Shown: positions 42 to 15,361, counted from the stretch's first letter. The stretch: DNA of 64,000 nucleotides from an uncultured Candidatus Saccharibacteria bacterium (GCA_964618625.1 CAZUBI010000001.1:332266-396265); one strand, 5' to 3'. Made by a program: numbers and translations. Notes: a model not told the origin generated them from the sequence alone.

Positions 42-353
42 TTACTTTCCAAAAGATATTTTTAAATCTTTATTAAAAACTTGAGCAATCTTTTGGAGCA
101 TATTAATACTGAAATTTTGATCCCCAGCTTCCATTCTCGCAATATTGCTTTGTTTTGTTCCAATTTTCTTTGCTAATGTTGCCTGAGACATTTTCTTTTT
201 TTTGCGCAATTTAAATATTTGGTAACCAATATTTAATTGAATACTATATTTATCAAAATATTTCTTAAACTTAGGGTCCTTTAATTGCTCCTTAAGATAT
301 TCTTGAAAATCTGTCGCTTTTTGTTGGTTTTTATTCATATTTTCCATCTTCAT
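42..353 (-). CDS. XRE-family helix-turn-helix transcriptional regulator, a possible R-M controller or antitoxin-like protein
   Basis: The C-terminal half carries the classic Cro/C1 HTH (MSQATLAKKIGTKQSNIARMEAG). It is 103 aa and sits at the end of the R-M operon. Confidence 0.6.
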   Translation of the reverse strand: MKMENMNKNQQKATDFQEYLKEQLKDPKFKKYFDKYSIQLNIGYQIFKLRKKKKMSQATLAKKIGTKQSNIARMEAGDQNFSINMLQKIAQVFNKDLKISFGK

Positions 354-442: not shown

Positions 443-919
443 TTAAATAAAAATAGCTCCGCGATATTTATCCCATTTAGCAAGTTGCATACTCCTATTA
501 GGTAAATATTCAAGCATATCTAAACGATGGTATTTATTTACTATGTCATTAAGATATTTACTAAGCCCGTGAGGTGATATTAGAATTGCTTGATCTGGAC
601 GCACGAGTTTTGAATAAATAAGCAATTGAGCGAGATGTGAGAAGTTTAAAGATGAATCTTTTACCTCAATAAAAACCAACTTATATTTACCGTCCTTTTC
701 TACTATGCCAAGCAAATCTACTTTTATATTGTAAAGTGGGTAATCGGGAAAATCTTTTTTAAGTTTTCTCTTTGAAAAGAAGTCACTTAGATATATTTTA
801 TGAACATCAAAAATTTCTACTTTACATCCGCGATTTTTATTCTGGAGATACTCTAAAAACCAATCTCTCATTGGTGCATAAAGCGCAAGTTCTCTTTTTG
901 TTGGTTTATCGTTACTCAT
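443..919 (-). CDS. Small PD-(D/E)xK-like protein, candidate small nuclease subunit of the R-M system
   Basis: 158 aa. The motif VDLLGIVEKDGKYKLVFIEVKD fits the hD...(E)xK nuclease signature. It overlaps the upstream gene by 8 nt, consistent with an operon containing the methyltransferase. Confidence 0.3.
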   Translation of the reverse strand: MSNDKPTKRELALYAPMRDWFLEYLQNKNRGCKVEIFDVHKIYLSDFFSKRKLKKDFPDYPLYNIKVDLLGIVEKDGKYKLVFIEVKDSSLNFSHLAQLLIYSKLVRPDQAILISPHGLSKYLNDIVNKYHRLDMLEYLPNRSMQLAKWDKYRGAIFI

Positions 920-1820
920 CTTTTTCTACAACAGAAATTAGATAATTTAATAACTCTCTCCAGTTATCGAAATGTTTTTCCCTAAGAAAATCGGGAAGCT
1001 TTTTCGAATCTTCTTCTGGATTTGGCGGTTTTGGTTTAGACCTCATAACCGCTTTTTTATCACCAAGATCAGGTAAGTTCTTATCAGCCAACTCTTTTAA
1101 AACTTCGTTCTTATGATTCAAGTAAGACCCTATTTTGAGAAACTGATTTGCGTAAATCTTTACTTGATGTTCCTTTGCCCAAAATCCTTTATCCCTTTTA
1201 AATTCGGGGTCTCTAAAATTTGGATGCCCGAAGTCAATTGTTTGTATTGGGACATCGAGATTAGAAAGTAGTTTGAACAGGTCAACAATAACAAGCCAAT
1301 TTCTCTGATCAACTTCCAAATAAATCCTGTGTTGGTTTTCTTTTCCAAAGGCAGCGTTTGATTTTCTTATATGTCCAGTGGTATCGAAATAGCCACGCAA
1401 GAATTCTTTTTGTATTTCTTTATCTGCTTCAAATATTGCCGTTGGTATTCTGAAAGAATGAAAATCAACGAATTCATCATTGAGAAGATACTTCAGCACT
1501 TGCCACGATAAATCTTCTCCGTGCCATGTAAGAATCAATGCTACGTCATTTTGGTTTGTATTATCTTTAGAAACATCGAAGCCGTAATGCCGTATCCTAT
1601 TTACTATCGTGTCTAAACTACTGGACAATTCAAGAGAAGTATCGTATGACTTTGTGTAGCCAACAGCACCCAAGCTTTTATAAGGGAATGTAATTGAAAG
1701 GCGTTTTGTTTGTCCATCACGCATGAAAATTCCCTTACCGACTACCAAACCCAGAAGGTATGCGATATCCTCGTTTAAAAAGTCTGAAATTTTATTAGTT
1801 TTGTCCATATTATTTTTCAA
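912..1820 (-). CDS. Free-standing LAGLIDADG-fold protein with degenerate catalytic positions, paralogous to the endonuclease domain of the gyrB intein
   Basis: Two LAGLIDADG-like motifs are present: LNEDIAYLLGLVVGKGIF and IQKEFLRGYFDTTGHI. They closely match the gyrB intein-2 motifs LNEDFAYLLGFYIGDGCF and IQQAFLRGYLESDGSI. Position 8 of each motif is K/T rather than D. The gene overlaps the methyltransferase gene by 11 nt. Confidence 0.5.
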   Translation of the reverse strand: MKNNMDKTNKISDFLNEDIAYLLGLVVGKGIFMRDGQTKRLSITFPYKSLGAVGYTKSYDTSLELSSSLDTIVNRIRHYGFDVSKDNTNQNDVALILTWHGEDLSWQVLKYLLNDEFVDFHSFRIPTAIFEADKEIQKEFLRGYFDTTGHIRKSNAAFGKENQHRIYLEVDQRNWLVIVDLFKLLSNLDVPIQTIDFGHPNFRDPEFKRDKGFWAKEHQVKIYANQFLKIGSYLNHKNEVLKELADKNLPDLGDKKAVMRSKPKPPNPEEDSKKLPDFLREKHFDNWRELLNYLISVVEKDE

Positions 1821-3657
1821 AAATTAAAATATACTCATGAACTTTATTCACGATAAAACTATAAGGATATCCTAGGGGTTTTAGATTATTATATTCTTTC
1901 TGTCTGTCCCAAATCGCTATATCTCGCTGCTTGAAACCTATGTCTTGTAATTTATTAGCCAAGTCAGAATGAAAAGGATAAAAGTTTGATTTTTTTCTGA
2001 TATCCATAACGATTACAGCACAGAACCCACCACTTTGTAATGAGATGTAGACGTTTTTAAATATATTCTGAAGAGATATTAAAAACTCCTCATAGTCGTG
2101 TAGATTTCCTAAATCTTGTTTACTATCTCCATAATTTACTATTTTTTTATTGTCCGCCGTTCTTCTTTCATTCAAGATATCCCAATATGGTGGTGAAGTA
2201 ATACATAACTTCACAGAATTTGGTTTAACGTGTTTACTTAAATTCAAAGCATCGTCAACGAATAATTCATATCTGCCTTTCTTATTAAAATCTTTATAAT
2301 GGGTAGAGAGGCGTTTTTTGCAAAGTTTAATATATTCTTTGTTGAGATCTATTCCTACTGCCTTTCTATCTTTTCTTAATGCAGCGATGACCACGCTACC
2401 GCTACCCACCATGGGATCAAGGACAATGGAAGTTTTTTTGCCAGTGTAAATATCTATAAGTCGTTCCGCTAAAGAAATTGGAAATATTGCTGGGTGATCA
2501 AGTGTTGACTCTTCCGAATTCTTTGAAATATCTCGCCAGATGCTAAACGAATTTTGCAACCACCTAGATCCATTCAGTCTATTAAACCTGTCTTTAAGTC
2601 CGTTTATACTAACAACATATAAACGTTCGTTTGTAGAATTAGGATCATTGCTGGTCTGGTTTATGCTCCTGTATCTTTTATGGCTCTGTTGATAAAGTTT
2701 TAAATCGCCCTTTTGAGATAGAATATTATTAATAGTGGGATCGGAAATTATGCCTTCGTTATTATAACTAAGAAGTATGTGGCGGGCTTTAGCTTTTTTG
2801 ATTAAATCTGCAAATACTTTTTGTGCTGTAGATTTTTGGCAGTAGAGCGATTTTTTTGATTCGTCAAAGTAAATACCGGTTTTGCTTTTCGGTAGTATCT
2901 TTACTTCTTTATCAAACCAACCTGTAGCAATTAGTTCAAGTAAAAAATAATTGGAAACGAATTGGCGAGTGTTGTAAGGTGGATCTAAATATAGAATATC
3001 CGTAGAAATTCTTCCTACAATATCATTTGCATCGGACTTAAATGCCTTATTAACTCTTTTGCTGGGAATAATTTCTGGTGGTGTTAGTGTTAGTGATTTC
3101 AAAGCCCTTTTGTCCCACTTTTTGAGAAAAGCACCGTAAGTGCCCGCAACATTTGATACAAGATTTACAGCTTCAATTAAAGCGGTAATCAAGTAGTAGT
3201 ATTCTAATTCTGTAATCTTGTTGTTATCTTTCCATTCCTCGATTTGAGTTCTAATTGTATCAATCTTCTTACCATTTTCATCAGAAAAATATTTTCTAAT
3301 TTTTTTAGTTCCGGTGGGACAATAATTTTTATATATAAATCCCTCTGTTGGTTTAAGCTTATTAAGGTAGTTTATAACTTTCTCATAAGTTTCTTTACCT
3401 TTATTATTATCAACTACTTTTTTTAACTTTCTAAGCTTGGGGTATTCATTTAATTCAATGTATGTTTTCGCTAAAGCGTAGCAAAATTCAAGATTGTCAT
3501 TAGCGATAACTGTGTAACCTAATTTCTTAAAATGTTTAGCCACGGCCGTAGTTCCAGTAAAAAGATCAAAAAACTTTGCGCCCTCGTAGAGATCGAGGTT
3601 CTTTGATGCCTCTTCAATAAATTTTAAGAGTTTTGTTTTACAGCCGTAGTATCTCAT
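1810..3657 (-). CDS. Fused dual DNA methyltransferase: an N-terminal Dam-like (D12 class) m6A domain plus a C-terminal N4/N6 (SPPY-type) domain
   Basis: N-terminal half: RYYGCK, FDLFTGTTAV and ILYLDPPYNT (Dam motifs I and IV). C-terminal half: HPAIFPISLAERLI...LDPMVGSGS (motifs X and I) and CITSPPYWD (motif IV). The protein is 615 aa. Confidence 0.8.
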   Translation of the reverse strand: MRYYGCKTKLLKFIEEASKNLDLYEGAKFFDLFTGTTAVAKHFKKLGYTVIANDNLEFCYALAKTYIELNEYPKLRKLKKVVDNNKGKETYEKVINYLNKLKPTEGFIYKNYCPTGTKKIRKYFSDENGKKIDTIRTQIEEWKDNNKITELEYYYLITALIEAVNLVSNVAGTYGAFLKKWDKRALKSLTLTPPEIIPSKRVNKAFKSDANDIVGRISTDILYLDPPYNTRQFVSNYFLLELIATGWFDKEVKILPKSKTGIYFDESKKSLYCQKSTAQKVFADLIKKAKARHILLSYNNEGIISDPTINNILSQKGDLKLYQQSHKRYRSINQTSNDPNSTNERLYVVSINGLKDRFNRLNGSRWLQNSFSIWRDISKNSEESTLDHPAIFPISLAERLIDIYTGKKTSIVLDPMVGSGSVVIAALRKDRKAVGIDLNKEYIKLCKKRLSTHYKDFNKKGRYELFVDDALNLSKHVKPNSVKLCITSPPYWDILNERRTADNKKIVNYGDSKQDLGNLHDYEEFLISLQNIFKNVYISLQSGGFCAVIVMDIRKKSNFYPFHSDLANKLQDIGFKQRDIAIWDRQKEYNNLKPLGYPYSFIVNKVHEYILIFEK

Positions 3658-3660
3658 AGC

Positions 3661-3840
3661 TTAGTTTTTCTTATTACTATTTTGGTCAATAAAGCAATCA
3701 ATGTCTGTAGCTTTTACTCTCCATTGACCTATCTTTGACGCATTTAATCTTTTCGCCTTGATATAGCGCATAATAGTGTGCTCACTAACGCGTAACTTTT
3801 GTACTATCTCTTTTATATTTAAGAAGTTTTCTTTAGCCAT
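3661..3840 (-). CDS. Small HTH DNA-binding protein of the excisionase/MerR-like HTH_17 type (59 aa), a candidate controller of the R-M operon
   Basis: This ORF is not in the supplied track because it is shorter than 60 aa. It translates as MAKENFLNIKEIVQKLRVSEHTIMRYIKAKRLNASKIGQWRVKATDIDCFIDQNSNKKN. It starts 3 nt after the methyltransferase gene. Confidence 0.5.
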   Translation of the reverse strand: MAKENFLNIKEIVQKLRVSEHTIMRYIKAKRLNASKIGQWRVKATDIDCFIDQNSNKKN

Positions 3841-3882
3841 ATGTCCTTTACATATACTTATACTTAATTCTATTATAGCAGT

Positions 3883-3934
3883 TTGTCATATTTTGTCACC
3901 CACAAGCCCTGTCACGTATTGTCATATTTTGTCA
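3883..3934. promoter_or_regulatory. Array of five TGTCA half-sites with 10-bp phasing, a putative operator in the promoter of the HTH and methyltransferase operon
   Basis: TGTCA occurs at 3884, 3894, 3910, 3920 and 3930. TTGTCATATTTTGTCA is repeated twice. Confidence 0.4.
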
Positions 3935-4048: not shown

Positions 4049-4081
4049 AAGGCTTTCCTAAGTCCATGTTAGGAAAGCCTT
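4049..4081. terminator. Bidirectional rho-independent terminator hairpin
   Basis: AAGGCTTTCCTAA-gtccatg-TTAGGAAAGCCTT forms a perfect 13-bp stem flanked by an A-run and a T-run. It lies just after the stop of the minus-strand gene 4099..4419. Confidence 0.55.
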
Positions 4082-10387: not shown

Positions 10388-13300
10388 TTATATATCCAAA
10401 TTTCTTACTTTTTGGGCATAAGCTTGAATGAATTTTTTCCTTGGTAATACTTCTTTACCCATTAAAATATCAAATAATCTATCTGCCTCTTCTGCGTCTT
10501 CAATAGTAACTTGCTTCAAAACCCTCTTCTCAGGATCCATAGTTGTATCCCATAATTGATCTGGGTTCATTTCTCCTAACCCTTTGTATCGTTGAATAGA
10601 AATTCCTTTCATTAATTCTTCGTTGCTGCCATCAGAAAGTTCTTCTTTTTCTACAGCTAAAATAGCTTCATCTTTACCTTCTTCAACTAATTTTAATTTT
10701 CGCACCTTGGATTTGGAAAGCTTTCCCTTTTTTTCTTCAACTTTGCCTTGTATTTTTTCCAATACTTTTTGTTTTTCTGCCTCTGTATAGGCGTAATGAA
10801 ATTCTTTGCCTTTTTGAATCCGATACAGAGGAGGTTGCGCAATATAAAGATATCCAGCTTCAATAATTGGTCTGAAGTAGCGGAAAAACAATGTTAAAAG
10901 CAAGCTGCGGATATGAGCACCATCAGTATTATGAAGTAAAAATCCACCAGTACCAGCAACAAAATTTTCATCTTTTTTAACGGCAAAATCATAAACAAAA
11001 GGAATCTCCGTTTTAATCTTTTTTATTGAAGTTATTGGCAAAAGAACTGAATCACCAATGCGAATCTTTTTATAGCTACTTCTTCTCCTATCAGCTTTAA
11101 CAAGATAATTTTCTAATGCTTTGCTCCTCTTGTGATTTTTCCAAACATCTTTTAATCTCTCCAATTGACTAATTCCTTTAACCGAGATAAGACGTCCTGG
11201 ATAATTACTTCTTATCATTACCCCGTCTTTGCGCAGATGGTCTTTTGAAAATCGCATAGTACTTTCAGGAAAAATGCCAAGTTGGCGAAATAGCAAAACA
11301 ATACCGTCTGATAAATTTTCTGAGGCAGTGGTAAAAGTTAATTTTACATCTAATTTCTCTTTACAAGATTTTACAACAATACTTCCATCGCTTTCTAAGT
11401 AACCACGTAGGAAAGCTTGTTGAATTTTTGGATTGACACTAAAAATTTCCTCTGGAACAAACTTTTCATATGATTTCTTTCCCAAAAGCCCTAAAGATTG
11501 AAGGATTAATTTAAATTCATATGAATGAAATACTAATTGATTGTTGTTATCATTTCTTTTATCTATGAATGCTTTTGCTCCTAAAACATTATCTATGGCC
11601 TTAATAAGTTCTGGGCTATACAATTTTTTGTCTCTTCCTAAAGATAAAATAAAACGATTAGGGTTCTTTTTTTGAGACGCAAAACAACCATCGCCAATAT
11701 AAAAACCTAAGAGATAAGCAAAATCTTCATTAAGGTCAAATGCAACTTTGAGTTTTCGGGTGTGATTTTTAAAATAATACTCAATAGCATCGCTAGTTTC
11801 CAAACACGAAGATAAAGGAATGTATGCCGAAGCGTTTTTTAAAACTTTTTTTTCTTCTAAATTCAATCCCGTAAGATACTCTTTAAAAATTTTATAACGA
11901 GGCATAACATTATCAATCTTCAACTCCCATTGCTCTAATACTGTAGTATAAACTCCAATAGCTACCCCCAATCTTTTTCTCGATATTCCTTTTCCCTGAC
12001 GCCTTAATTGAAGTTTTTGCCAGTATTTAGAACTAATATCAATCCAAGCATCATTAGGAATAAACTTCATCTTTGAAGCCAGAACTTTTATTTGAATATT
12101 TTTTGCTTCTTCAGAATGTTTTAAAAGCGGGCTGATATCTATTTTTATCTTTTGATTTAACCGAGACATTGAAGCAGGAAAAACAATTCTGTCGCCAATC
12201 TTTAATTTTGTAGTTGGTACTGTGATAAAATTTCCATAACGATAAACAAACACATTATGGCATGAGGTTATTTTCATCTTATATCCATAGCGAGTTTTTA
12301 TCTCATAAAGGCTGCCTCTTAATGGATGACGTATTGTTTTTTCAATATCTCTTAAAGAAAAAGTTTTTTTGTCTAAATCACAAGCAAAAACCTGATATCT
12401 TTCTGTATCCTGACATTGGTTTTCTATAAATTCACCTGTTTTTACTAATTTTAATCTTTGTTGTTGTTTATCAAAAACAAAAATTGGCGTATCATAAGCC
12501 ACGCTATCAGCGTCAGTCATTATGACAATCTTATGATAACGAAGTTTATCAATATTAAAATCTTCACTTATTGCTGTTCCCAAAGCCACAATTAAAGCCT
12601 TTATTTCTTCGGAAGCCATCATTCTGTCAAAGCGACTTTTTTCTACATTCAAAATCTTGCCTTTTAAAGGGAGAATTGCTTGTGTGTTTCTGTTTCTCCC
12701 CATTTTTGAGCTATTATGAACAAATATACCACTTGATAACGCAAAATTATGTGTCCCTGGAACTTCTATATCGTAAACATCTATCTTTTCCTGTAATAGA
12801 ATTATTGATTTAATTCGATGATTATAATTAACGACTGCCTCATGTAATTTTTTCTCATCCCCTGCAAAAAATCTTTGGCAAATTGTATTATACCTTATAA
12901 GAGTTTTATCGTTTGTATTTTTTCTAATTAAATTATAAGAATCTTTATTAATTTTATTCTCCTTTTGATAAATTTCATACAAAACCTCTATGCATCTTCT
13001 TAGATATGTTTTGTTATAAGAAATTATCCTTTTTTTTCTAAATTCATCTGTCCATTGTTTTTTAGTCATTTCGGATCGCCAGTTTCTTAAATTTAAATTA
13101 TCCCATTGTTTCTTTGCTAATTCCGAATATTCCTTTTTCTTATCTGGATGATTTTCAAAGTATTCTTTAGTTCTTTTAGATTGTTTCTCTCTATTTTGCC
13201 AATCAGCCCAATATCTTTTTTGGGACTGATCAAGAATCTTTTTGCTTTTTGCCCTATATTCTGCATTGTTATTATAAAACTCCAAAAATTTTTGAGCCAT

Positions 13301-15361
13301 ATAGTTTTTGTACTCCTCGTTCTGCCATTGTTTCTTTGCCCTTTTGCTTAGCATCTTTTTCATCTCAGGCGTAGACATAATTTTTCTAATCTTTTCTCTA
13401 TACTCGATTGATTTGTGTGCTTGTCTGGCTTTTTCTATTACATCGGGGCGACGCAGAGTATGTTCTATATAATCATAATGGAGGTTCATATGCTGTTTGT
13501 AAGAAAATCGCTGAATGTTTATTGGATTATTATTTAATTTATTAAAATCTAAATGATGACGATGTTTTCCATCAGAAACTGAATAAATACCATTTTCAAG
13601 ATTAAATATATCAGCCAATATATGGGTATACATCCATTTCCTGGCTTTAGGGTCAAAGACCATTTCGTAACCATCTAAACCATATTTTCCTTGCCTCTTT
13701 GACACTTCTCGATAAAGAGGAGCAATGCTGTGTTGAGGAGTCAACTGAATAGCGGAAATATAACTACCATCAACTAATCTAAACCGATGATCAGGAGTAC
13801 AAATTAATTCCTCTCCATTGTCTAAAATAATTTTAATAACTTTTGTATTCTTTTTAGTCATCCTCGGGTCTAATATGGAAGCAATACCAATGTGTCCATT
13901 ATTCTGTATGGTGTAACAAAAATTTTTCTTGCCCTGCTTGTATTCTTTAATTAATGCTTTAAAAGAAAGATTACGTCCATCAGTTAATGCAATCTCTGTA
14001 TCTCCACTCCAACACCCGCCGGCAGAATCGCCCTCAACTATAAACAATTCTGATTCTTCTGCATTTTTTGAAATACAATCAGCTAATTTTCCAGGTAAAG
14101 TCATTCCTTCTAAAACCCCTTTTCTAAGAATATTCTCTCGAGCTTTTTTGGCAGCTTGTCGGGCTCGAGCGCTTAATAAAGATTTTTCAAGAATCCTTTT
14201 GGCGTCTTCCTTGTTGGCTTCTAAAAACTCTTTAAAGTTTTCCCCCACAACTTGTTCTACGGCAGTTCGCGCTTCTGGATTTCCTAATTTTGCTTTTGTT
14301 TGCCCTTCAAATTGAGGCTCTCTTAATTTTACACTGACTACGGTCACTAATCCTTCGCGAGTGTCTTCTCCACTAAAACCAATATCCCCATTTTTAAATA
14401 TTCCCTGCTCTTTGGCATAATCGTTTAAAGTTCTGGTTAATGCTGATCGAAAACCAGTCAAATGCATTCCTCCTTCTGGAGTATGAATATTATTAGCAAA
14501 AGCTTTTTCTGTACTCTCAGAATCATCGGTATAAAGCAAGGCAACCTCAACTAAAATTCCTTCTTTCTCTTGCTTGACATAAAAAATATTATTAGTTAAA
14601 CAATGAGCAGTTCTTGCCAAATATTGAACTAAAGTAATAATTCCGCTTTCAAAATAAAAAGTATAAGAAGGAAGAAGAGCGCTTTCTCTATTATCTTCAA
14701 ATTTAATTGTAGTACCTGATGTGAGATATGCCTGTTGTCTTAAATGATCAAGAATCTTTTTTGTATCAAACTTAATTTCTTTAAAGATTTCCGGATCTGG
14801 CTCAAAAATGATTTTTGTTCCAGATTTTTCGCATTTGCCTATTTTTTTAAGTTTTGTCTTTGGTTTTCCTCGATTATATTCTTGGCTATATAACATTCCA
14901 TCACGGCAGATTTCTGCTTGTAAATATTCTGAAAGGGCATTCACAACTGAAATCCCTACGCCGTGCAATCCTCCAGCTACTTTATAGGATTTTCCTCCAA
15001 ATTTTCCACCAGCATGCAAAGTACACATTACAGTTTCCAATGCTGATTTTTTCGTCTTTTTATGAATGTCCACAGGAATTCCTCTTCCATCATCTGTTAC
15101 AGCCACTTTATTTTCTTTCAATATCTGTACTTTAATATTTTTGGCATAACCACCCATTGCTTCGTCAATCGAATTATCTACACATTCCCAAATTAAATGA
15201 TGCAAGCCCTCGGGACCAGTAGATCCAATATACATACCAGGTCTTTTTCGAACCGGGTCCAATCCTTCTAAGACATAAATATCTTTAGCTGTGTAGGAAT
15301 TCTCCTCTATATTATTAAGAGAATCTTTAACTTTTTTTGTTTTTTTTACAGGTTTAATCAT
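10388..15361 (-). CDS. gyrB: DNA gyrase subunit B precursor containing two inteins
   Basis: GHKL ATPase N-terminus, the EGDSAGG motif, and IMTDAD...DGAHIRSLLLTLFFR. The mature length would be about 697 aa. The two inteins are 434 aa and 526 aa. Confidence 0.9.
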   Translation of the reverse strand: MIKPVKKTKKVKDSLNNIEENSYTAKDIYVLEGLDPVRKRPGMYIGSTGPEGLHHLIWECVDNSIDEAMGGYAKNIKVQILKENKVAVTDDGRGIPVDIHKKTKKSALETVMCTLHAGGKFGGKSYKVAGGLHGVGISVVNALSEYLQAEICRDGMLYSQEYNRGKPKTKLKKIGKCEKSGTKIIFEPDPEIFKEIKFDTKKILDHLRQQAYLTSGTTIKFEDNRESALLPSYTFYFESGIITLVQYLARTAHCLTNNIFYVKQEKEGILVEVALLYTDDSESTEKAFANNIHTPEGGMHLTGFRSALTRTLNDYAKEQGIFKNGDIGFSGEDTREGLVTVVSVKLREPQFEGQTKAKLGNPEARTAVEQVVGENFKEFLEANKEDAKRILEKSLLSARARQAAKKARENILRKGVLEGMTLPGKLADCISKNAEESELFIVEGDSAGGCWSGDTEIALTDGRNLSFKALIKEYKQGKKNFCYTIQNNGHIGIASILDPRMTKKNTKVIKIILDNGEELICTPDHRFRLVDGSYISAIQLTPQHSIAPLYREVSKRQGKYGLDGYEMVFDPKARKWMYTHILADIFNLENGIYSVSDGKHRHHLDFNKLNNNPINIQRFSYKQHMNLHYDYIEHTLRRPDVIEKARQAHKSIEYREKIRKIMSTPEMKKMLSKRAKKQWQNEEYKNYMAQKFLEFYNNNAEYRAKSKKILDQSQKRYWADWQNREKQSKRTKEYFENHPDKKKEYSELAKKQWDNLNLRNWRSEMTKKQWTDEFRKKRIISYNKTYLRRCIEVLYEIYQKENKINKDSYNLIRKNTNDKTLIRYNTICQRFFAGDEKKLHEAVVNYNHRIKSIILLQEKIDVYDIEVPGTHNFALSSGIFVHNSSKMGRNRNTQAILPLKGKILNVEKSRFDRMMASEEIKALIVALGTAISEDFNIDKLRYHKIVIMTDADSVAYDTPIFVFDKQQQRLKLVKTGEFIENQCQDTERYQVFACDLDKKTFSLRDIEKTIRHPLRGSLYEIKTRYGYKMKITSCHNVFVYRYGNFITVPTTKLKIGDRIVFPASMSRLNQKIKIDISPLLKHSEEAKNIQIKVLASKMKFIPNDAWIDISSKYWQKLQLRRQGKGISRKRLGVAIGVYTTVLEQWELKIDNVMPRYKIFKEYLTGLNLEEKKVLKNASAYIPLSSCLETSDAIEYYFKNHTRKLKVAFDLNEDFAYLLGFYIGDGCFASQKKNPNRFILSLGRDKKLYSPELIKAIDNVLGAKAFIDKRNDNNNQLVFHSYEFKLILQSLGLLGKKSYEKFVPEEIFSVNPKIQQAFLRGYLESDGSIVVKSCKEKLDVKLTFTTASENLSDGIVLLFRQLGIFPESTMRFSKDHLRKDGVMIRSNYPGRLISVKGISQLERLKDVWKNHKRSKALENYLVKADRRRSSYKKIRIGDSVLLPITSIKKIKTEIPFVYDFAVKKDENFVAGTGGFLLHNTDGAHIRSLLLTLFFRYFRPIIEAGYLYIAQPPLYRIQKGKEFHYAYTEAEKQKVLEKIQGKVEEKKGKLSKSKVRKLKLVEEGKDEAILAVEKEELSDGSNEELMKGISIQRYKGLGEMNPDQLWDTTMDPEKRVLKQVTIEDAEEADRLFDILMGKEVLPRKKFIQAYAQKVRNLDI
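10928..12505 (-). mobile_element. gyrB intein 2 (526 aa) with a LAGLIDADG homing endonuclease domain, inserted in TDAD|(V)DG
   Basis: It starts SVAYDT and ends FLLHN, followed by T+1. The LAGLIDADG motifs FAYLLGFYIGDGCF and FLRGYLESDGSI keep the catalytic Asp. Confidence 0.75.
12713..14014 (-). mobile_element. gyrB intein 1 (434 aa) with an HNH-type homing endonuclease domain, inserted after EGDSAGG
   Basis: It starts CWSGDTEIAL and ends FVHN, followed by S+1. The TPDHRF block B is present. The HNH region is GKHRHHLDFNKLNNNPINIQ...QHMNLH. Confidence 0.7.

Follow-up and report, generated by a model that had tools for sequence, protein, structure and literature searches.

A predicted Type II restriction-modification operon in a Saccharibacteria genome, pairing an acid-less LAGLIDADG protein with a small PD-(D/E)xK protein

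Of the described systems, the class III heterodimeric type IIS restriction enzymes, to which BtsI (GenBank DQ355163) and BsrDI (DQ367879), both of type IIT, belong, are functionally the closest to the one proposed here. BtsI has subunits of 37.6 and 18.6 kDa, and across the class the large subunits are ~38-56 kDa and the small subunits ~18-25 kDa (Xu et al. 2007, PMC1950550; Chan et al. 2011, PMC3017599). The BtsI small subunit carries the residues D65/E78/K80 and is inactive alone, and the system has two amino-methyltransferases (PMC1950550, PMC3017599). In the large subunit of BtsI and BsrDI, an N-terminal PD-(D/E)xK-like nickase site of the form D-X13-17-E-X12-QR is followed by a target-recognition region (PMC1950550, PMC3017599). 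How a separate cleavage subunit is switched on has been left open for these enzymes (PMC3017599). Here we describe a four-gene unit in a stretch of 64,000 nucleotides (nt) from an uncultured Candidatus Saccharibacteria bacterium (GCA_964618625.1, CAZUBI010000001.1:332266-396265; hereafter the window, meaning the whole stretch analysed). Drawing on structure prediction and comparative genomics, we consider it probable that this region is a mobile Type II restriction-modification (R-M) operon with an asymmetric target, in which a LAGLIDADG protein without its catalytic acids acts as the recognition subunit and a PD-(D/E)xK protein as the catalytic subunit.

The unit consists of four compactly arranged open reading frames (ORFs) on the minus strand, in the order helix-turn-helix (HTH) regulator (3661-3840, 59 amino acids, aa), methyltransferase (MTase; 1810-3657, 615 aa), a 302-aa protein that we call LARGE (912-1820, counted from a TTG) and a 158-aa protein that we call SMALL (443-919); L and S denote the same pair. 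This is the order given by an earlier reading of the DNA from its sequence alone (the sequence-only reading), and the ORFs are as it described them. For comparison, 11 loci from metagenomes and 80 from GTDB genomes were examined with ORF and hidden Markov model (HMM) scripts; 84 of these loci are usable, having an intact LARGE and DNA downstream.

In its predicted structure (predicted local distance difference test score, pLDDT, 92), LARGE is a genuine two-domain LAGLIDADG fold, whose comparison scores are 15.9 with I-Tsp061I, 15.8 with PI-PfuI, 15.6 with PI-SceI, 14.2 with WhiA and 13.5 with I-DmoI. Sequence libraries alone return sub-threshold LAGLIDADG matches (Pfam E-value 0.007). The LAGLIDADG core covers about residues 15-230 and is followed by a family-specific C-terminal extension of residues 231-302 (915-1148, minus strand). 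The first LAGLIDADG helix lies at 1731-1772, the second at 1374-1421 and an invariant H199-P200-N201 loop within 1212-1229, all on the minus strand. The segments AYLLGLVVGKG and FLRGYFDTTG of LARGE align to AYLLGFYIGDG and FLRGYLESDG of an intein in the gyrB gene of the same window (intein 2), which bears out the replacement of Asp by Lys in one block and by Thr in the other that had been noticed from the sequence. The substituted residues, K29 and T148, occupy the C-terminal ends of the two helices, which are the metal-binding positions of homing endonucleases. In the 84 loci, the residue at position 29 is N in 42, R in 27, H in 9 and K in 6, and at position 148 it is T in 82 and A in 2; among 54 representatives sharing less than 50% identity, position 29 is R, K, G, N or S and position 148 is A, T, I, G, V, C, N or S. 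Thus an acidic residue occurs at neither catalytic position in any of the 84 loci or 54 diverse representatives. Universally invariant residues are instead Y21, G24, G30, G143, D146, H199-P200-N201, K237, E270, P276 and H283. The earlier description of the protein as degenerate is misleading, because the protein is highly conserved and has invariant motifs of its own.

The nuclease fold that was expected of the 158-aa protein is present. Fold comparison places SMALL as a restriction-endonuclease-like alpha/beta core with an intact D...ExK site, and its scores are 9.5 with AF1548, 9.4 with both PaqCI and NgoMIV, 9.0 with NucS, 8.4 with N.BspD6I, 8.3 with FokI and 7.4 with the BspD6I small subunit. 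The site, D68...E85-V-K87, is encoded at 659-718 and a second motif, Q98xxxY102, at 614-628 (both minus strand). All of 44 diverse sequences, down to 32% identity, keep D68, E85, K87, Q98 and Y102 unchanged, and at least 90% of them have E10. The nuclease cores align over 104-125 of the 158 residues of SMALL, and an obvious recognition domain is absent. The only PADLOC matches of SMALL are to PDC-M23A and, weakly, to Cas4 models and a single PglZ model.

The 615-aa protein (1810..3657, minus strand) is a fused DNA MTase with two amino-MTase domains, as the sequence-only reading proposed from its Dam-like DPPY and N4/N6 SPPY motifs. The N-terminal D12-class domain (Dam-like, alpha order; PF02086, E-value 3e-37) is encoded at about 2608-3657, with motif I near aa 30 and DPPY at aa 225, and the C-terminal domain (N6_N4_Mtase, PF01555, E-value 2e-27) at about 1813-2592, with motif I DPMVGSG at aa 414 and SPPY at aa 488. 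Each half thus carries motif I; PADLOC MTase_II models match each half, and beta-class N4/N6 MTases in the PDB match aa 372-457. Two different MTase domains per system are the usual solution for an asymmetric target, and because the two MTase activities belong to different classes, the site of this system is expected to be asymmetric.

Comparative sequence evidence strongly supports the view that LARGE and SMALL are one functional unit tied to DNA methyltransferases. The LARGE family comprises 712 clusters at 90% identity by word-indexed search and 462 representatives at 50% identity by exhaustive HMMER search, and the SMALL profile recovers 2910 clusters. The family occurs in archaea, on plasmids and in phages as well as in candidate phyla radiation (CPR) bacteria, Bacteroidota and Firmicutes, the last including Streptococcus suis (strains 15, AP_SS21 and W153) and Ruminococcus albus 8; Alkaliflexus imshenetskii DSM 15055 and Winogradskyella epiphytica also carry the cassette. 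All named LARGE members are "hypothetical", bar one with the automatic UniRef name "DOD-type homing endonuclease domain-containing protein". At each of the 84 usable loci SMALL comes directly after LARGE, the gap usually being -8 to +13 nt, and the pairwise identities of the two proteins across loci track each other closely (r = 0.955). MTase genes are found directly upstream in 81 of the 84, the remaining three lying on contigs without upstream DNA, so that the 302-aa family is associated with R-M genes everywhere we examined it. Two MTase activities precede the pair in 77 loci, and at least three unrelated class combinations occur: an EcoRI-like N6-methyladenine (m6A) MTase with a cytosine-C5 (m5C) MTase, separate or fused into about 700 aa (40 loci); D12 with N6_N4, fused or separate (37 loci); and gamma-class N6_Mtase/Eco57I/TaqI_C with N6_N4 (two archaeal loci).

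Within LARGE, conservation is distributed as would be expected of a specificity surface. Residues 50-130, within LAGLIDADG domain 1, are the least conserved part. Over the 84 loci, three of the four domain-1 beta-strands differ between MTase groups, their consensus differing at 67-100% of positions, and their overall conservation is 0.35-0.55 versus 0.78-0.86 for the strands of domain 2. In the wider superfamily the domain-2 strand residues R152, N155, R165, Y167 and E169 vary too, and the H-P-N loop, K237, E270, P276 and H283 do not. We infer that the beta-saddle of LARGE may be a variable DNA-reading surface, and that the H-P-N loop and the C-terminal extension could form a constant platform, either docking SMALL or filling some other catalytic or regulatory role.

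Fusions tie the two proteins together in a different way. An exhaustive search found about 22 representative clusters of single chains of 539-557 aa, in which a linker of roughly 60 aa connects LARGE (about 1-335) with SMALL (about 390-545; SMALL-HMM E-values 5e-13 to 6e-33). All 22 fused forms retain D68, E85, K87, Q98 and Y102, as well as E10 wherever it is aligned. Because they occur fused in one chain, LARGE and SMALL are likely to act in one complex (the Rosetta-stone argument). In all three contexts available for the fused gene (L104:1187-3354, L106:592-2701 and L107:270-2382, encoding proteins of 541-557 aa), it is followed by a free SMALL paralogue of 159-165 aa in which the ExK residues are gone (replaced by N-R-E, or by A-V-Y together with T for D68) and Q98 is replaced by E. 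This combination of a fused L-S protein with an ExK-less paralogue points to a paired action of SMALL domains, like that of FokI and BspD6I. Another fusion, a 998-aa MTase-LARGE protein (P0247; e.g. L100:3553-6549), joins a 708-aa MTase of the EcoRI-like-m6A/C5 type exactly in frame to a 290-aa LARGE; it is present on 40 contigs and is flanked by an HTH_17 gene upstream and a 151-aa SMALL downstream (L100-L103).

These observations suggest the following mechanism. The HTH_17 regulator, bound at a repeated operator, would govern the operon, and a single polypeptide with two amino-MTase domains would protect the target, one domain per DNA strand. LARGE, a monomeric two-domain LAGLIDADG protein without the metal-binding acids, would serve as sequence-recognition and scaffold subunit, and SMALL would supply the catalytic site (E10, D68, E85, K87, Q98, Y102) and do the cutting. 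LARGE would position SMALL on the DNA, probably via the H-P-N loop and the C-terminal extension. Double-strand cleavage would most likely need two SMALL domains, either as an S:S pair on one LARGE or through two complexes, by analogy with FokI and BspD6I and because the single-chain relatives always come with an extra SMALL paralogue. The enzyme may be a heterodimer and may be of type IIS, cutting outside its site, as the sequence-only reading proposed. Folds, linkage and fusions give strong in silico support to the core of that reading, a two-subunit restriction enzyme for an asymmetric site whose recognition subunit derives from a LAGLIDADG protein.

Several observations weigh against this reading. 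No characterized homologue was found in library, annotation and profile searches, and two loci (L045 and L079) show a single MTase beside the cassette. LAGLIDADG DNA-binding saddles, and homing endonucleases generally, are typically basic. LARGE is near-neutral, with an isoelectric point of 6.3-6.5 in the window, a family median of 7.2 and a domain-1 net charge of about -1; since it is not markedly basic, domain 1 could be variable because it is under relaxed constraint and not because it sets specificity. The invariant polar residues D146, H199, N201, K237, E270 and H283 could form a catalytic rather than a docking site, and the fused systems show one canonical active site per complex for two strands. 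The last two points also speak for the most probable of the alternatives, a mechanism of the BtsI/BsrDI type in which LARGE nicks one strand through a non-canonical site (D146, H199, N201, E217/H218, K237, E270, H283) and SMALL nicks the other. The computed masses of LARGE (35.3/34.8 kDa) and SMALL (18.8 kDa) are near those of BtsI (35 + 18.8 vs 37.6 + 18.6 kDa); the BtsI/BsrDI small subunit has a D...ExK site at similar positions (D65-67, E78-82) and is inactive alone; the invariant His, Asn, Lys and Glu of LARGE lie outside the LAGLIDADG motifs; and a fused L-S protein partnered by an ExK-less paralogue has one canonical site for two strands. The published nickase pattern is lacking from LARGE, and we consider this mechanism unlikely. 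Equally doubtful is a more specific proposal, that the site read by LARGE is short, asymmetric and methylatable, probably by means of one half-saddle that varies and one that is conserved, and that D146, H199-P-N201, K237, E270 and H283 make up either a new active site cutting one strand or an allosteric switch for the PD-(D/E)xK partner on the cognate site. If it were true, that active site or switch would place the system in a restriction-enzyme class of its own, catalytic or regulatory, and make it a modular platform, occurring in nature, of the "recognition protein plus free nuclease" kind.

It is very improbable that LARGE is instead a regulator or an MTase accessory, whether a WhiA-like domestication or an MTase targeting module, next to a SMALL that works as a self-sufficient homodimeric enzyme. 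Nearly all of SMALL is nuclease core, and MTases of different classes imply an asymmetric site, which does not match a symmetric SMALL homodimer. LARGE and SMALL are also fused in the representative clusters described above. As for a regulatory role, a separate HTH gene heads the operon, and Pfam detects no HTH in LARGE, whose C-terminal 75 residues are a different, family-specific extension.

LARGE also resembles the gyrB intein. The gyrB gene of the window is a 1657-aa ORF (10388-15361, minus strand) interrupted by two inteins. Intein 1 (about aa 459-958) has no LAGLIDADG match in Pfam, and intein 2 (about aa 969-1478) contains a LAGLIDADG_3 endonuclease whose GDG and SDG motifs are intact (nt about 11378-11767). 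LARGE and the intein-2 endonuclease share 29% identity over 148 residues (E-value 8e-11), and the two had been called paralogous. That claim did not hold up: all 84 family members from other organisms match intein 2, and two from other metagenome-assembled genomes (MAGs), a Planctomycetia MAG (52.8 bits) and a Saccharibacteria MAG (52.0 bits), score higher than the window LARGE (50.8 bits). Because the similarity is family-wide and not highest for the window LARGE, the two do not form a within-genome paralogous pair; from these comparisons the similarity is one of superfamily ancestry, most like the intein and archaeal type. The weakest alternative, that LARGE is a decayed free-standing homing endonuclease or a gyrB intein copy lying between M and R genes by chance, can appeal to this significant similarity and to a loss of catalytic residues like that in decaying homing endonucleases, but it is effectively refuted by the recurrence of the same protein, identically substituted and with its own invariant motifs, at the same operon position in 84 of 84 loci from many phyla, by its fusion to SMALL or to an MTase in other lineages, by the spread of the intein similarity across the family and by the high pLDDT together with strong sequence conservation.

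Returning to the operon that we favor as a two-subunit restriction system, its junctions and control region were read from the sequence. Of the 8-11-nt overlaps reported earlier, that between LARGE and SMALL is 8 nt (ATGAGTAA), as stated; the 11-nt MTase/LARGE overlap is valid only with the TTG start, and the HTH stop and the MTase ATG are separated by a gap of 3 nt. From the family N-termini and a database copy of 298 aa (P0001), LARGE probably starts at the ATG at 1808-1806, 1 nt past the MTase stop, and would then be 298 aa long. A promoter-like site (GTGACA, 16 nt, TATAAT, extended TG; 3872..3899, minus strand), 32 nt upstream of the HTH start, is a consensus match alone, at 11 of 12 positions. 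Two perfect 16-nt direct repeats (TGACAAAATATGACAA, minus strand; 3883-3898 and 3919-3934, 100% identity, spacing 36 nt) hold four TGACAA hexamers, two per copy and one helical turn apart, and one copy abuts the -35 hexamer. The operon is bounded by a terminator-like hairpin (4049-4081) that belongs to the preceding gene.

The 59-aa product of the first gene (3661..3840, minus strand) is an HTH_17 (MerR/excisionase-type) DNA-binding protein (PF12728, E-value 1.2e-11) with an additional weak MAD1 match. It presumably controls the operon, with the 16-nt repeats at the promoter as its presumed operator. It is HTH_17 rather than HTH_3/XRE and matches no PADLOC control-protein model. HTH_17 homologues stand upstream of the most closely related cassettes (L012, L013 and L016) and also in a distant subfamily, the MTase-LARGE fusion loci L100-L103; at most other loci an HTH_3 C-protein-like gene takes the regulator position. 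Directly downstream of SMALL in the window lies a 103-aa XRE/HTH_3 protein (42-353, minus strand), which has a perfect sigma-70-like promoter of its own (352-379; TTGACA, 16 nt, TATAAT; 12/12), matches PADLOC "control protein" models (E-value 8e-9) and weakly resembles the C-like HTH genes upstream of cassettes elsewhere (E-value about 1e-5).

The genes flanking the cassette in the window have a counterpart in no other examined locus, even at 75% LARGE identity, and elsewhere the cassette adjoins integrase, Mob and Rep genes. Because the flanks are unshared and the neighbors are of this kind, we conclude that the cassette moves as a module. It is present in two gut phages and on a 6.5-kb plasmid of Lactiplantibacillus plantarum P9 (L092, NZ_CP060181.1, 6495 bp), which carries rep, a DUF536 gene, a 700-aa MTase, LARGE, SMALL and a toxin-antitoxin pair. 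In its RefSeq annotation, LARGE and SMALL are each called "hypothetical protein", and "dcm" is the name given to the fused m6A/m5C MTase.

Some loci carry additional genes. An optional ORF of 112-149 aa lies between MTase and LARGE in certain subfamilies (L094:3643-4092, L097:3063-3401 and L028:6642-6989); the copies are homologous to one another (27-40% identity), match nothing in Pfam or PHROG, and are absent from the window. At Bacteroidetes-type loci (L001-L004), a 462-aa AAA_15/AAA_21 ATPase (e.g. L001:7425-8813) lies downstream of SMALL and is followed by a second small R-M-like unit of an HTH gene, a T5orf172 gene and, in 2 of the 4 loci, an N6_N4 MTase, so that in these genomes the cassette has a defense-island-like setting.

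LARGE also occurs in longer proteins. In those of 991-1299 aa (P0315, P0318, P0319, P0320, P0368; L108:4928-8176) it forms the C-terminal domain, and the N-terminal 700-1000 aa match nothing in Pfam; after P0315 comes an N6_N4 MTase. These proteins are possibly a further architecture built on the LARGE module. Proteins of 461-480 aa (P0403, P0405, P0406, P0408, P0415; L105:4378-5763) combine LARGE with an unrecognized C-terminal region of about 180 aa that has no Pfam match. They adjoin a C5 MTase and a 187-aa ORF partly matching SMALL (E-value 4e-9); their position 29 is Gly, and they differ at R165, E217, H218 and Q219, which are near-invariant in most other members.

The phospholipase-D and half-pipe folds complete the set of folds known from restriction enzymes. 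The remainder, as listed in reviews of these enzymes, are the PD-(D/E)xK, HNH/beta-beta-alpha-Me and GIY-YIG folds. A 2012 review of the relationships between homing endonucleases and host proteins names PD-(D/E)xK, GIY-YIG and beta-beta-alpha-Me, and not LAGLIDADG, as the folds shared with restriction enzymes, and the word LAGLIDADG is absent from large R-M reviews of 2014 and 2025. The only described host domestication of the LAGLIDADG fold is WhiA (PMC3384342). LARGE has no PADLOC match, no PADLOC restriction-endonuclease model recognizes LARGE or SMALL, and no NCBIfam model passes its cutoff. We did not find the architecture described in the libraries and annotation searched or in the literature on LAGLIDADG with restriction-modification, defense or WhiA, REBASE itself not having been searched. 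We rate the region as a Type II R-M system whose endonuclease architecture had not been described before in these sources.

If this is correct, a large and widespread family (462 clusters at 50% identity) would join the known restriction-enzyme architectures, as a second, independent domestication of the homing-endonuclease fold. It would also show how a scaffold whose usual target is about 20 bp long can serve a site small enough to be protected by MTases. With its split and fused forms and its active and inactive nuclease paralogues, the family would provide a graded set of material on the activation of a separate cleavage subunit. The 6.5-kb L. plantarum plasmid, a convenient experimental system, and the cultured hosts make the proposal directly testable.

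Like BtsI and BsrDI, the window system combines a large recognition subunit, on our reading, with a D...ExK subunit of about 18 kDa. Unlike their large subunit, LARGE folds as a LAGLIDADG protein in roughly its first 230 residues and has no conserved D/E/QR pattern, and the gene order is M-L-S here versus M1-S-M2-L for BtsI. Simple identity with BtsI/BsrDI was rejected on the absence of the published large-subunit catalytic motif from LARGE, a distinction drawn from the description of that motif, not from sequence; distant homology between SMALL and the BtsI/BsrDI small subunit is a lead. For the roughly 540-aa fused forms, identity with the BsaI/Eco31I/BsmBI family was likewise set aside, since they carry a PD-(D/E)xK domain. 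That family reportedly also uses m6A and m5C MTases, and Eco31I is said to have been assigned a single HNH site. In BspD6I/BstNBI, which pair a large nickase with a small catalytic subunit, and in FokI, the recognition domains are winged-helix bundles, not LAGLIDADG, whereas the window system appears to place recognition and cleavage on separate polypeptides, with LARGE lacking a nuclease domain of its own.

On the side of the LAGLIDADG proteins, WhiA/DUF199 has a C-terminal HTH and sits in a conserved Gram-positive operon; LARGE differs from it in having another C-terminal extension with no HTH, the invariant H-P-N, K237, E270 and H283, and an R-M context. With PI-PfuI, PI-SceI, I-Tsp061I, I-DmoI and the gyrB intein-2 endonuclease, LARGE shares its fold and both LAGLIDADG helices, but it has neither the catalytic acids nor the intein or intron context of homing endonucleases, and is always found with SMALL and MTases. 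The same principle, a dead LAGLIDADG binder combined with a PD-(D/E)xK cutter, underlies engineered chimeras of inactive I-SceI with PvuII or FokI domains, which are artificial, covalently fused and directed to an 18-bp target (Fonfara et al. 2012, PMC3258161). If our reading holds, the window system would be the natural counterpart of these "dead meganuclease plus nuclease domain" chimeras, differing from them in being widespread in nature and in addressing a site short enough for ordinary MTase protection.

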